IMG/VR virus record: IMGVR_UViG_2660238346_000024
Strand: one strand, 5' to 3'
Length of the DNA: 4,767 nt
Origin: a virus
Taxonomy: Duplodnaviria > Heunggongvirae > Uroviricota > Caudoviricetes
How positions within the stretch are numbered: position 1 is the stretch's first letter; every line of letters starts with the position of its first letter. Positions 1-4,675 of the stretch are shown piece after piece. The notes beneath the pieces were generated by a model. It had not been told where the DNA came from, did not search any database, and saw only the letters and a program-made list of their open reading frames with translations. Position numbers and translations under genes: made by a program.

Positions 1-87
1 CCCCCGGAGTCCTCTTATCTTGCTGGGCGGTGGAAGACGTTGCCCTTTCAGGTGGCAATAATGAACTGCATGGGTAATGACCGGATC

Positions 88-111
88 GTAAGCGACTCGT
101 CAGAACCGTAT
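88..111. repeat. Left terminal inverted repeat of the IS66-family element (GTAAGCGACTCGTCAGAACCGTAT)
   Basis: Starts with GTAA. Aligns with the reverse complement of 2762..2785 (GTAACCGGCTCATTTAAACCGTCT) at about 17 of 24 positions, sharing GTAA, CG, CTC and AACCGT blocks. Aligned by eye, not computed. Confidence 0.55.
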
Positions 112-117
112 TGATAT

Positions 118-1689
118 TTACTGAGAGCTCAGATCAACTTTCCAGGGCAACAGATCGCGTACCCGGTTTGCCGGCCAGTCCTGGATATGTTCAATGACGT
201 AACGCAGCCACTTTTCTGGCTCCACATTGTTCAGACGGCATGTGCCGATCAGCGAGTACAACACCGCCGCATGTTCACCACCGCTGTCGGAACCCACGAA
301 CATCCAGTTTTTCCGGCCTACGGCCACTCCCCGTAAGGCGTTCTCTGCGATGTTGTTGTCGATTTCCACCCAGCCATTACTGCAGTACACGTTCAGTGCA
401 TCCCACTGTTTCAGCAGGTATGCGAACGCTTTTGCCGTATCTGACTGACGCGACAGTGTTTTCATCTGTTGCTGTATCCAGTCATACAGTGACTGCATCA
501 GTGGCGCGGCTCTGGCTTTTCTTGCCGCCAGACGCTGTTCTGCTGAACAGCCCCGGACCTCTGCCTCGATGGCATACAGTTCACCGATACGCTGCAGGGC
601 TTCCGTGGTGATGTAGGTGGGCGCTCTTGCATGCACATCGTGGATTTTTCTCCGGGCATGAGCCATACACGCGGCTTCCGTTATTCTGCCGGATTCGTAT
701 AACTCCCGGTAACCACCGTAAGCATCGGCCTGAAGCACACCGCTGTAACCGGCCAGGTGATTTTGTGGATGGATACCTTTCCGGTCCGGACTGTACGCGA
801 ACCAGACCGCCGGGGGCATCTGTGAACCGGCGTTACGGTCATCACGGACGTAGACCCACAGCCGGGCTGTCCGGGTTTTACCGCTGCCCGGCTCCTGGAC
901 CGGGACGGGGATATCATCAGCATGGACTTTACCGGGCATCAGCACATACTGGCGCAGGACGTCATACAGCGGCTCCAGCAGTTCAGCAACAGCACCTGTC
1001 CAGCGCCCAAGTGTGGCACGGCTCAGCTCCACTCCCTGACGACGGTATATTTCTGACTGGCGGTATAACGGCAGATGGTCTGCATATTTCCCGGTGACAA
1101 CATGGGCCAGAAGCCCCGCTCCGGTATAACTGCGTGCAATTGGTTTTGAAGGTACTGGTGCCTGCACGATATGGTCGCACCGGCAACAGGCCTGTTTCGG
1201 ACGTTGTGTTTCGATAACCTTAAAGGCGCTGCTGATAAGCTCCAGTTGCTCTGACACATCACATCCCAGAGAACTGAGTTCACCACCACAGGCAGGACAG
1301 CATTCCTCTTCCGGCCGGATAACCCGGGTTTCACGGGGAAGTGAGGCCGGTAACGGTTTACGGGCTGAAGACTGGCGCAGGGCGGATGGCAGTACCGGGT
1401 CATATTGCTCACCCAGCGTTTCCGCCATTTCTTCCTGAAGTGCGCTGATTCGCTCCTGTGCTTCCTGTATCTGCCGTTCGGTTTTTGCACGAAGTTTTTC
1501 TGAGCTTTTACCGAACTGCATACGTTGCAGTTTCGCAACCAGCGCCTTCAGCCGGTTGATTTCGGAAGCATAAGCCGCCACCCGCTGTGAGAGCAGGCGG
1601 TTGTATTAAGCCATCTGGCGGATGGTGTCCTGTTGCGTCTGCAACAGTGCCCGCAGGCGGGCGTTCTCATGAGCAAGTGAGGTGTCCAT
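118..1689 (-). pseudogene. tnpC: IS66-family transposase TnpC, interrupted by an in-frame TAA (plus-strand 1606..1608) 27 codons after the ATG at 1687..1689; the longest intact frame is 118..1581 (487 aa from a GTG)
   Basis: The 487-aa ORF has an N-terminal coiled-coil or leucine-zipper-like region, a Cys cluster (CCPACGG...CCRCDH) and a DDE-type core, typical of IS66 TnpC. Translating upstream in the same frame gives MDTSLAHENARLRALLQTQQDTIRQMA[13 protein letters not shown] and then the ORF. The ATG at 1687..1689 lies 4 nt after the tnpB stop with GAGGA just upstream, so it is the natural coupled start. The full frame is 523 codons, the normal TnpC size. Confidence 0.85.
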
Positions 1690-1693
1690 ATCC

Positions 1694-2056
1694 TCACTTT
1701 ACAACGGGATATATGCGGATTCCAGCGCGTTCCGTTCGTTTCGGGTGCTTCCAGTTGATACCTTCAAGAAGCATGGATAACTGAGCCGGAGTAAGGTGCA
1801 CCTTGCCGTCACGGGTGACTGGCCAGACGAAGCGGCCCAGCTCCAGGCGTTTGGTGAAGAGGCACAGTCCGTCACTGTCAGCCCACAACACTTTTATCTG
1901 GTCACCCCGGCGTCCGCGGAAGATGAACAGGTGTCCGGAGAACGGGTCATCCTTCAGGACGTTCTGAACTTTTGATGCCAGGCCGTTAAAGCCATTTCGC
2001 ATATCGGTGATACCTGCAACCAGCCAGATACGCGAACCTGCAGGTAGAGATATCAT
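1694..2056 (-). CDS. tnpB: IS66-family accessory protein TnpB (IS66 Orf2-like), 120 aa
   Basis: Size and position between tnpA and tnpC. The start ATG overlaps the tnpA stop by 1 nt (ATGA), indicating translational coupling. The sequence MISLPAGSRIWLVAGITDMRNGFNGLA... resembles IS66 Orf2-like proteins. This is the IS66 TnpB, not the IS200/IS605 RNA-guided TnpB. Confidence 0.88.
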   Translation of the reverse strand: MISLPAGSRIWLVAGITDMRNGFNGLASKVQNVLKDDPFSGHLFIFRGRRGDQIKVLWADSDGLCLFTKRLELGRFVWPVTRDGKVHLTPAQLSMLLEGINWKHPKRTERAGIRIYPVVK

Positions 2057-2448
2057 CAGTGGTTGCTCCCTTTTATTTCGCGGATAAGTGTCTGTAATAA
2101 CGCCGGCGTCAGTTTACCTTTAAGCCTGAGAGTTCCGGCCGGCAGAACCAGCTCACAACACAGACTGTCGGACGGTGTATTTATCTGCTCTGGTTCCTGT
2201 GCGGGGGCCGGGATTTTATTATCCGGCTCCGGCGTTAACGTCACGGGAAGCAGTGCCGGCATATTTTTTCCGGAAGGCAGCAGTCCACCTTTCCGGTATT
2301 GATGGCGCCAGTTGAAGAGCAGGTTATCGTTGATTCCGTTTTCCCGGGCGGTCTGCGCCACACAGGCTCCGGGCTGCAGTGACTGCTCCACTAAGGCGAT
2401 TTTAAACTCATAAGGGAAGTTGGGCCGCCGGGGACGTTTTTTTACCAC
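2056..2448 (-). CDS. tnpA: IS66-family accessory protein TnpA (transposase HTH_Tnp_1-like), 130 aa
   Basis: The N-terminal segment RPRRPNFPYEFKIALVEQSLQPGACVAQTARENGINDNLLFNWRHQYRKG fits the transposase-8 helix-turn-helix pattern. It is the first of the three canonical IS66 ORFs and its stop overlaps the tnpB start. Confidence 0.82.
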   Translation of the reverse strand: MVKKRPRRPNFPYEFKIALVEQSLQPGACVAQTARENGINDNLLFNWRHQYRKGGLLPSGKNMPALLPVTLTPEPDNKIPAPAQEPEQINTPSDSLCCELVLPAGTLRLKGKLTPALLQTLIREIKGSNH

Positions 2449-2732
2449 GGGGCTTCGGATATAACGGTGCTTTCAGGACGTACGACTGGTACCGTGGAAA
2501 ATTGTACGTAAAGGCAGGCATCAAGTTCCTGCTCCGACATGCCTGCGGGCAAATGCCACGAAAGACCAGCTCTCCGAAAGCGCACGAACATACTACAAAC
2601 TGTTGATTTTGGTACACCCAGGCGACGCCCGGCCACAACCCGGGGTAAATGTTCTTCAAAGTGAAGACGTAAAGCTTCAGTGATCCAGGTCCGGTGTTTC
2701 ATACGATAGTGTCCATTAAAAATGATGGACAT
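2442..2732 (-). CDS. Small helix-turn-helix protein ORF (96 aa; possible start at the internal Met MKHRTW, giving 86 aa) inside the IS upstream of tnpA; probable IS-encoded accessory or regulatory protein
   Basis: Intact ORF between the right inverted repeat and tnpA, overlapping the tnpA start by 7 nt. Contains an HTH-like segment (RVVAGRRLGVPKSTVCSMFVRFRRAG). No strong Shine-Dalgarno sequence is visible, and the family assignment is uncertain. Confidence 0.5.
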   Translation of the reverse strand: MSIIFNGHYRMKHRTWITEALRLHFEEHLPRVVAGRRLGVPKSTVCSMFVRFRRAGLSWHLPAGMSEQELDACLYVQFSTVPVVRPESTVISEAPW

Positions 2733-2761
2733 TATTTTTGTAGAGCCGGAGGAAACAGACC

Positions 2762-2785
2762 AGACGGTTTAAATGAGCCGGTTAC
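2762..2785. repeat. Right terminal inverted repeat of the IS66-family element
   Basis: The reverse complement reads GTAACCGGCTCATTTAAACCGTCT, beginning GTAA. It sits immediately next to the breakpoint in the phage I gene. Confidence 0.6.
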
Positions 2786-3329
2786 TATCCAGCGAGGAAA
2801 AGTACGTGTTCTGTCTGCCGTTATCCGTTACGCGGTAATCCGGTGTTTTTGCCTTCGGGGCCAGCATCTGTGCCACACCGCCCAGTATCATGCTGGCCCC
2901 CAGTGAAAACAGCATCGTGGTGGCAGAAAAACCACCGGCACTCAGGGCTGAACCCCATAACGCCATCGAGGCACCGGCCGTGAAGAAAGAGCCCACGATG
3001 GCTGCCGCCCCCAGCACAATCTGCAGTCCGCCCTTTCCGGCTCCGGCCAGTCGCGGCACAATTTGGATGACCGTTCCCTCACCCAGCTGTTCGTGAAGAC
3101 GGGCGTACACCGCCTCCGGTGCCGTGTCATCACCGGCAATACGTATCTGGTACCAGCCTTCGTTCATCTGACGGCGGAATCCGGGCACCTGTAACGACAG
3201 GGCGCGAATGGCTTCCGCTGCCGTGTTCACATACAGGCTGAGGCGGCGGCCAAATCGTTGTAAATCCCCGTGAAGGCAGATGCGTGCCAGTGGCGGTGAC
3301 GCCAGACAGAATGCGTTCGTCGTTGCCAT
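2769..3329 (-). CDS. I: Lambda-like tail tip assembly protein I, C-terminally truncated by IS insertion; native I sequence is 2786..3329 (181 codons), followed by 5 IS-derived codons and a stop
   Basis: The N-terminus MATTNAFCLASPPLARICLHGDLQRFGRR and the rest closely resemble lambda gpI (223 aa) up to ...QNTYFSSLD. The ORF then reads SNRLI-stop from IS sequence. Base 2786 supplies the first base of the next codon, and the IS GTAA end starts at 2785. Confidence 0.88.
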   Translation of the reverse strand: MATTNAFCLASPPLARICLHGDLQRFGRRLSLYVNTAAEAIRALSLQVPGFRRQMNEGWYQIRIAGDDTAPEAVYARLHEQLGEGTVIQIVPRLAGAGKGGLQIVLGAAAIVGSFFTAGASMALWGSALSAGGFSATTMLFSLGASMILGGVAQMLAPKAKTPDYRVTDNGRQNTYFSSLDSNRLI

Positions 3330-3970
3330 TTTTCGGAATACCTCTCCCGTTTACTCAGTTGTTCAGGCAGATGGTGAAGCAGCTCACCGTTGCCGCAGTA
3401 AATGGCGGCATGATTAGCCACCGATGCGCCGAAGCAGCACAGCAGGATATCGCCCGGCAGTGCAGAGGACAGGGGCACCCGGTAAAAGCCCGTTGCCTCC
3501 ATATTGTCCAGGTAAAGGTTCTGACCGTTGCACCACCAGTCATCCCCGCGATGAAAATCCGGCATATCAATGCCTGCCAGATGGTATGCATCCCGGAACA
3601 GCGTGTAACAGTCCGTCACCCCGTGCGCAAAGCGCCGTCCTGTCAGATGCGGCACACAGCGGAATTTGTGAATGTCACCCCGGCTGACCAGCCACCAGGG
3701 CAGTGCGCTTTTTATCTGCAGCCGCCGGTCAGCCTCGCTCAGCCAGGGCAGACCACCGGGATGACTGTGGACCAGTGCCACAATCTCCCCCTGCATCTCT
3801 GCCCGCAGCCAGTCTTCCGGTGCGATACGAAAATACGCCTCAGGCTCTGCAGAGATATTCACGCACGGCTGGTACTGGTTGCCCTCCGGCGTGCTTATCA
3901 CGAAGCCGCACGACTCCGCAGGCGCACACCGCCGGGCATGCGCCAGAATCGCTGATTCAGTCTGTGTCAT
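3227..3970 (-). CDS. K: Lambda-like tail tip assembly protein K (JAB/MPN metallopeptidase plus NlpC/P60 peptidase domains), 247 aa
   Basis: JAMM motif HSHPGGLPWLSEAD (H-x-H-x7-S-x2-D) is encoded at 3728..3769. An NlpC/P60-type catalytic Cys lies in GVTDCYTLF (codon 3608..3610), with a downstream His in NHAAIY. The 103-nt out-of-frame overlap with the start of I (3227..3329) matches the known K/I overlap in lambda. The start is 5 nt downstream of the L stop. Confidence 0.9.
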   Translation of the reverse strand: MTQTESAILAHARRCAPAESCGFVISTPEGNQYQPCVNISAEPEAYFRIAPEDWLRAEMQGEIVALVHSHPGGLPWLSEADRRLQIKSALPWWLVSRGDIHKFRCVPHLTGRRFAHGVTDCYTLFRDAYHLAGIDMPDFHRGDDWWCNGQNLYLDNMEATGFYRVPLSSALPGDILLCCFGASVANHAAIYCGNGELLHHLPEQLSKRERYSEKWQRRTHSVWRHRHWHASAFTGIYNDLAAASACM

Positions 3971-3975
3971 GGGAT

Positions 3976-4675
3976 TTACTGCGAAAGTTTATTAATGGAA
4001 AGGAAACCGCCAAAATTGCCGACATTCCTGCGCAGTTCACACCCGCGCATGCACTTGCTGCATCTGTCCTTACGGATATCCGTGGTGGGTTTATCGAACT
4101 CATCCGCCACAGCCCCGCCCGTGTAACCACACTCATCAGAGCGGTAGGTCCACATACAGGTGTTCGCCAGCATGATACGACCGGGAAACAGCGCCCCGTC
4201 CGTCTCGGTCGGTGTGGCCAGCACAAACGAGGCCGTCATGGCTGTCAGCTGCGACATCTGCTCCACCACCCAGCGGTCACTCAGCTCCTGCTCCGGGTCC
4301 GCCTCCGGATTGCCCGCAACGAAATTCACCGCATCCAGAAAACGGGCATACACCCGGCGGCGGACCACCGTGGCCCCCACCAGGCTCTGCAAATCCTCCG
4401 CCATTCCGGTGACAAGACCAAACAGATTGGACACCGTCAGCGACGGGCGGGCACTGCTGCCCTTTCCGTTCATCTCAAAGCCACTCCCCTCAATCGGGTA
4501 CGCCTGATATTGCCGCCCCTGCCAGGTCACCGGCTCCCCCTTTTTCATTCAGCTCATTACAGAAAAAATACCGCTCACCGCCCTGTACCGTCAGGTCGAT
4601 TTCCCAGAGCACCACCCGCGGTGACTGCTCTGACTTAACCGACTCGTTCAGACTTTCTTCGTGAATATCCTGCAT
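3976..4675 (-). pseudogene. L: Lambda-like tail tip protein L, disrupted by a +1 frameshift in an A5G5 homopolymer tract (plus-strand C5T5 at 4536..4545); the two pieces are ORFs 4490..4675 and 3976..4548
   Basis: The 61-aa ORF begins MQDIHEESLNE...ERYFFCNELNEKG like the lambda gpL N-terminus. The 190-aa ORF continues (MKK)GEPVTWQGRQYQAYPIEGSGFEMNGKG... through to ...NVGNFGGFLSINKLSQ. Joining 46 aa and 186 aa gives 232 aa, the lambda gpL length. The coding strand reads GAAAAAGGGGGAGCCG where the fused reading needs one base fewer. Confidence 0.85.

Follow-up and report, generated by a model that had tools for sequence, protein, structure and literature searches.

We estimate at roughly 85% the probability that the stretch of E. 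coli DNA analyzed here (4,767 bp; hereafter the window) belongs to a decaying, tail-defective prophage in which an ISCro1-like insertion sequence (IS) once transposed into the tail-tip gene I, that the junction between gene I and the IS has been inherited, and that the present arrangement is not the original insertion. The window is one whole contig, CCCD01002330.1 of the draft assembly GCA_000939215.1, which is fragmented into more than 2,300 contigs; the window contig is numbered 2330. A literature search found no paper naming this assembly or its WGS prefix. The minus strand of the window contains the tail-tip genes L (4675..3976), K (3970..3227), and I (3329..2769) of a lambda-like prophage, in what we take to be the same order, and with the same overlap between K and I, as in phage lambda. 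The IS occupies positions 88..2785, and a fragment of a gene for the terminase large subunit fills positions 1..87.

The open reading frame of gene I (3329..2769, minus strand) specifies a product of 186 amino acids, in which 181 codons derived from I are followed by five codons (SNRLI) and a stop that lie within the IS terminus (2769-2785). Over its residues 1-182, this product is collinear with lambda gpI residues 1-181 (PDB 8IYK chain I, 223 amino acids, E=1e-73), and the alignment has no large gaps. The match to the Pfam family PF06805 Lambda_tail_I covers the full profile (positions 3-83, E=1.6e-15), showing that the N-terminal domain is present. Lambda gpI, which aligns end to end over residues 1-181, is also represented by PDB entries 8IYL, 8K35, and 8XCG. 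The codon for D181 corresponds to positions 2789..2787, and the coding strand across the break reads GAT A|GT AAC CGG CTC ATT TAA. Position 2786 is the last base of I and position 2785 the last base of the IS; codon 182 is cut between its first and second bases. Many E. coli I genes match the window with 100% identity starting exactly at 2786, and the ISCro1 copy of an O26 strain ends exactly at 2785. The first-pass annotation had proposed that I follows lambda gpI to ...YFSSLD (codon ending at 2787), then reads five IS-derived codons and a stop, with the break exactly at the GTAA terminus of the IS; all of this agrees with the alignments.

In intact homologues, the sequence ...NTYFSSLD is followed by NMIAQGNPMPVPYGEMLVGSRRISQDISTRDEGGDGK.VVIGR.., within a conserved NM(I/V)AQGN...VVIGR tail. 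Among the four sequences aligned, 43 to about 47 residues lie beyond ...YFSSLD, with 43 in lambda. The C-terminal β-strand region (lambda residues ~181-223) is missing from the window's I, which ends with SNRLI and a stop codon instead. The first-pass annotation had put the loss at about 42 residues; the C-terminus is indeed lost, and by lambda numbering 43 residues are missing. Gene I adjoins the IS with the 8 bp TATCCAGC at 2786..2793, and the intact allele reads ...ATCATGT TATCCAGC GAGG across this site. At the intact locus the 3' end of I, ...GGCAATCATGTTATCCAGC, precedes gene J. Both J and the 3' part of I are missing from the window.

Annotated I homologues differ in length, which might suggest that the short I is a natural, functional variant and that the IS merely lies downstream of it. 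However, these differences come from alternative start codons and from partial genes at the ends of contigs. The last five codons and the stop of the window's I fall inside the IS terminal repeat and are identical in the other ISCro1 copies compared. All of the aligned full-length homologues keep the conserved tail, continuing NMIAQGN...VVIGR, and none of them ends in ...YFSSLDSNRLI. On the basis of the homologue tails, the IS-derived end, and the 223-residue length of lambda gpI, we rejected a natural short variant, the probability of which we consider negligible. The SNRLI ending was seen in no other protein. No exact protein record was found for the 186-amino acid product; a 153-amino acid version that begins at a GTG start is on record with its exact sequence from the window contig only.

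Two members of the protein cluster that end in ...YFSS (P0122 and P0123) looked like possible further carriers of the junction. They were rejected in that role: the contigs that encode them end 8 nt short of the junction, in a different prophage background with extra genes between L and K, and so carry no information on the IS. Several independent draft contigs (L010-L013) terminate at one identical base inside I (...TACTTTTCCTC), likewise 8 nt short of where the window has its junction. Their common end probably reflects an assembly graph branch shared among prophage copies and is unrelated to the IS.

The IS spans 2,698 bp (88..2785, minus strand) and is 99.3% identical over its full length to RefSeq-annotated copies of ISCro1, an IS66-family element that was first described in Citrobacter rodentium and is widespread in E. 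coli. It has the same termini as ISCro1 (GTAAGCG...CCGGTTAC) and the same order of tnpA, tnpB, and tnpC. The intact ISCro1 copy of E. coli O26:H11 11368, which has an 8-bp duplication (TATTCGCG) directly outside its termini, aligns to the window from 88 to 2785, and the ends also coincide with those of the IS66-family copy in ETEC 90-9280 (L003). The O26 copy is 2,699 bp long, the difference being a 1-bp deletion in the window's tnpA. The terminal inverted repeats of the window's IS are imperfect and have GTAA ends (GTAAGCGACTCG... and GTAACCGGCTCA...); they agree at 18 of their outermost 26 positions (GTAAGCGACTCGTCAGAACCGTATTG versus GTAACCGGCTCATTTAAACCGTCTGG) and at 22 of 40. The ISCro1 match, the three tnp genes, and the GTAA at both ends confirm the earlier assignment to the IS66 family with termini at about 88 and 2785. 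When the element is read from tnpA to tnpC, position 2785 is the tnpA-proximal end, which under the naming convention is presumably the left end (IRL).

The genes of the IS, all on the minus strand, comprise the transposase gene and both accessory genes expected of an IS66 element. The DDE transposase gene tnpC (118..1689) encodes the Pfam domains DDE_Tnp_IS66 (E=1e-102), zf-IS66, LZ_Tnp_IS66, and DDE_Tnp_IS66_C, and its match to NCBIfam transpos_IS66 (476 bits; cut-off 180) places the product in this transposase family. An in-frame TAA at 1606-1608 interrupts tnpC at codon 28, and the longest open reading frame restarts at a GTG at 1581. This stop is caused by a C-to-A change at 1608 that is private to the window; two IMG/VR draft contigs that carry the same I/IS junction (L007 and L008) have the intact base. 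A public gene call (L009 3079-4650, equivalent to window 118-1689) lists a 523-residue tnpC product that runs through the in-frame TAA at 1606-1608. The adjacent tnpB (1694..2056), which encodes the IS66 Orf2 accessory protein (Pfam TnpB_IS66; NCBIfam IS66_TnpB), is intact. The gene for the accessory helix-turn-helix protein, tnpA (2056..2732), has lost 1 bp from a run of G residues at ~2448-2452 and is thereby split into two open reading frames (2442-2732 and 2056-2448). Both halves match NCBIfam IS66_access_TnpA, at profile positions 1-73 and 80-189, and the deletion is found in neither the O26 copy nor L007 nor L008.

Comparison with L007, L008, and the O26 ISCro1 copy revealed 14 differences private to the window between positions 296 and 3063: 13 substitutions and one 1-bp deletion. 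All but one lie in the IS; the exception, at 3063, changes H to Q in gene I. G:C-to-T:A transversions account for 10 of the 13 substitutions, and the nonsense change in tnpC (1608) is among the private set. Were such transversions to account for 15% of substitutions, at least 10 in 13 would be expected with a probability of ~1e-6. Spectra of this kind typically arise from oxidative damage while libraries are prepared or from a mutY or mutM mutator, and the excess could reflect either oxidative sequencing damage or a mutY/mutM-type mutator. The tnpC nonsense codon and the tnpA frameshift may be sequencing errors. Because of this spectrum, and because the assembly is a draft of more than 2,300 contigs, we do not take the two lesions at face value.

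As judged by sequence comparison, the I/IS junction is real and inherited rather than a one-off assembly error, because L007 and L008 contain the same junction together with the same four single-nucleotide differences in the IS. The exact 32-mer that spans the junction is present in both contigs, whose alignments with the window start exactly at position 88. The four differences from the O26 copy that are common to all three contigs lie at 445, 1125, 2063, and 2565. A frameshift in gene L of the window is also found in L008. The prophage background of L007 is somewhat unlike that of the window: its K gene is mosaic, and an antirepressor-like open reading frame (L007 1-494) lies upstream of K. 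The junction is rare. It occurs in none of 5,426 complete E. coli genomes, and exact 28-32-mers across it were absent from GTDB representative genomes and JGI metagenomes.

The opposite end of the IS abuts a different gene. Positions 1..87 (plus strand) contain codons 41-69 (nt 121-207) from the large-subunit gene of a lambdoid terminase; the gene is directed toward the IS and would stop 8 codons into it. Thirteen complete E. coli genomes have annotated terminase large-subunit genes that match this segment with 100% identity; it corresponds to 4001-4087 inside the coding sequence 3881-5809 of L004, and its in-frame translation, PPESSYLAGRWKTLPFQVAIMNCMGNDRI, equals the terminase of L004. The 5' part of the terminase gene and the 5' part of I therefore converge on the IS from its two sides. 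Read directly, the 8 bp to the left of the IS (80..87) are ACCGGATC, which agree with the right flank, TATCCAGC, at only 2 of 8 bases, so no 8-bp target-site duplication brackets the element. Duplications of this length are present in the controls, namely TATTCGCG around the O26 ISCro1 copy and CCATAAAC around the IS66-family element of ETEC 90-9280. Unlike these controls, the window copy has no target-site duplication, and the tnpC nonsense codon and the tnpA deletion occur in this contig only. The missing duplication reflects the context of the element and is no argument against its membership in the IS66 family.

The window is not a simple insertion because terminase sequence lies at its left end, the flanks do not match, and the 3' part of I is lacking. 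The first-pass annotation had described an element inserted in I. The I/IS break is exact and real, as that description implied; the simple insertion does not survive these observations. More generally, "IS inserted in gene X" should not be read from one junction, and the other end and the target duplication should be checked, notably in short draft contigs.

We propose that an ISCro1-like element would once have transposed into I between bases 1 and 2 of codon 182, and that this original insertion would have duplicated TATCCAGC. The reading frame of I now extends 15 nt into the end of the IS and stops there. The join of the other IS end to terminase codon 69 would stem either from an IS-mediated rearrangement, for example one that inverted the ~14.6-kb block of head and tail genes within one prophage, or from the assembler. 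The simple-insertion ancestor was not observed, and no finished genome among the 5,426 complete E. coli genomes supports the arrangement.

The left linkage is either an IS-mediated rearrangement or the result of a contig joined through a repeat, and gene I is broken under both readings. The odds are even that the contig is chimeric, with the I/IS and terminase/IS junctions both real and derived from two ISCro1 copies that the assembler threaded together. The window is, after all, a complete contig of a fragmented assembly, and the three contigs with the I/IS junction leave the IS for unrelated loci after very short distances: 87 bp of the terminase gene in the window, 107 bp of a plasmid region beside a tyrosine recombinase gene in L007, and 172 bp of the type IV pilus gene pilI in L008. 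Three such different flanks would be more readily explained by arbitrary departures from a repeat than by three independent rearrangements. The leftmost 209 bp of the IS (88-296) contain no copy-specific difference and ISCro1 is usually multi-copy: C. rodentium has 24 copies (PMC3072379), and a single E. coli genome can contain as many as 26 places that match; short reads are therefore unable to tie the left flank to this particular copy. Against a chimera, the true left junction that it predicts, between the 3' part of I and the IS, is absent from IMG/VR, GTDB representatives, and JGI metagenomes, and De Bruijn assemblers would normally be expected to break at the edges of repeats rather than run into a wrong flank. 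If the contig is chimeric, the chromosome itself may contain a simple IS insertion in I, beyond which the 3' part of I and then J would follow.

A real rearrangement is possible, though we entertain it only tentatively. It would consist of the ~14.6-kb inversion from terminase to I in one prophage or of an exchange between two prophages, brought about by homologous recombination of inversely oriented ISCro1 copies or by intramolecular transposition, and it would leave both terminase and I broken. Two 5' gene parts that converge on an IS with no duplication are the exact product expected of such an inversion or of an intramolecular transposition. Moreover, in a complete genome with the identical terminase fragment, the same strand contains, ~14.6 kb downstream, L-K-I sequence that is 95.3% identical to the window's. 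Several complete genomes that have both sequences, however, have their best terminase and tail segments hundreds of kb apart, and the brevity of the left flank and the differing flanks of the sister contigs favor an assembly effect. Nor were the reciprocal junctions found: the predicted ancestral one (TATCCAGC followed by GTAAGCGACTCG..., GTAAGCG...) is missing from IMG/VR, GTDB representatives, and JGI metagenomes, and that of the terminase (CCGGTTAC followed by ACCGGATCCGCACAATT) from IMG/VR. The terminase/IS junction itself was detected neither in IMG/VR nor in the 5,426 complete E. coli genomes, and the pilI/IS junction of L008 was not detected in complete genomes. It is unlikely that all three left junctions are real, such that one inherited copy remained fixed in I at its tnpA-proximal end and was rearranged repeatedly at the other in three lineages, and, as a separate matter, that the strain is a mutY/mutM-type mutator. 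Three real left junctions would document that an IS66-family element had, in nature, produced adjacent rearrangements on one side only or fusions between replicons.

Of the remaining tail-tip genes, K (3227..3970, minus strand) is intact and encodes JAB/MPN and NlpC/P60 domains (Pfam Prok-JAB and NLPC_P60); its end overlaps the start of I by 103 nt. Gene L (3976..4675, minus strand), which encodes a minor tail protein (Pfam Phage_tail_L; TIGR01600), is split into open reading frames at 4490-4675 and 3976-4548. A +1 frameshift maps to a run of C residues at 4536-4540 (plus strand) that has five C residues in the window and L008 versus four in the intact allele L006. Because L008 has the same five-residue run, the frameshift is probably not a homopolymer error but a real change that was inherited.

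Cryo-EM structures of the lambda tail tip provide a view of what the truncated I has lost. The gpI trimer sits in the lumen of the tail tip, where residues 135-223 were modeled, and each copy binds gpJ (HDII, HDII-insertion, as well as FNIII-A) through three β-sheet augmentations (PMC10721106). Two hydrophobic helices and a plug (residues 159-175) are followed by loop-joined β-strands, for which gaps in the hub domains of gpJ provide a passage, and residues 167-223 are still resolved in the open state after receptor binding (PMC11101478). Aligned with these structures, the window's I is cut after the equivalent of D180 and retains the N-terminal domain along with the hydrophobic helices and the plug. 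What it lacks, the counterpart of lambda residues 181-223, falls within the gpJ-binding, C-terminal part of gpI (PMC10721106, PMC11101478). The truncation would be expected to abolish the function of I in tail-tip assembly, and the prophage could form a tail tip only if a second lambdoid prophage in the same cell supplied the proteins. We consider the prophage tail-defective because I is truncated, L is frameshifted, and J is not adjacent. The first-pass annotation had regarded I as a contributor to tail-tip assembly and infectious tailed particles as unlikely without complementation. The role of a mere assembly factor is outdated, with the gpI trimer located inside the tip (PMC10721106, PMC11101478); the prediction about particles stands, on firmer ground than before, in light of the gpI structures, the frameshift in L, and the position of J.

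IS66-family elements occur near the same genes in complete genomes. In ETEC 90-9280 (L003 5983-8756), such an element lies in the same orientation in the I-J intergenic region, bracketed by a clean 8-bp duplication, CCATAAAC, and neither I nor J is interrupted. In EH031 (L001 6442-9892), an ISCro1 copy in the same orientation interrupts K, not I, and in FDAARGOS_1059 (L002 6032-8689) an IS679-family element follows I. The window's junction was found in neither L001 nor L003. The different sites of these elements, inside K and between I and J, led us to reject a hotspot for IS66-family insertion in I.

Strains of EHEC and EPEC (O157, O26, O103, and O111) contain defective lambdoid prophages that are riddled with IS elements and have lost structural genes to IS insertions and frameshifts; complementation by sibling prophages is possible in such strains. 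By analogy, the window would be another instance of an IS-riddled defective prophage, with nothing notable to set it apart. IS elements in prophage structural genes, IS-mediated rearrangements, and repeat-induced chimeras are all well known, and the finding as a whole is one of ordinary prophage decay. Beyond annotation its importance is small: it is a clear case in which a known IS has inactivated one of a prophage's structural genes. Related prophages in L010 (7187-8221), L011, and L012 encode a ClpP-like protease and two Arc-family repressors between L and K.
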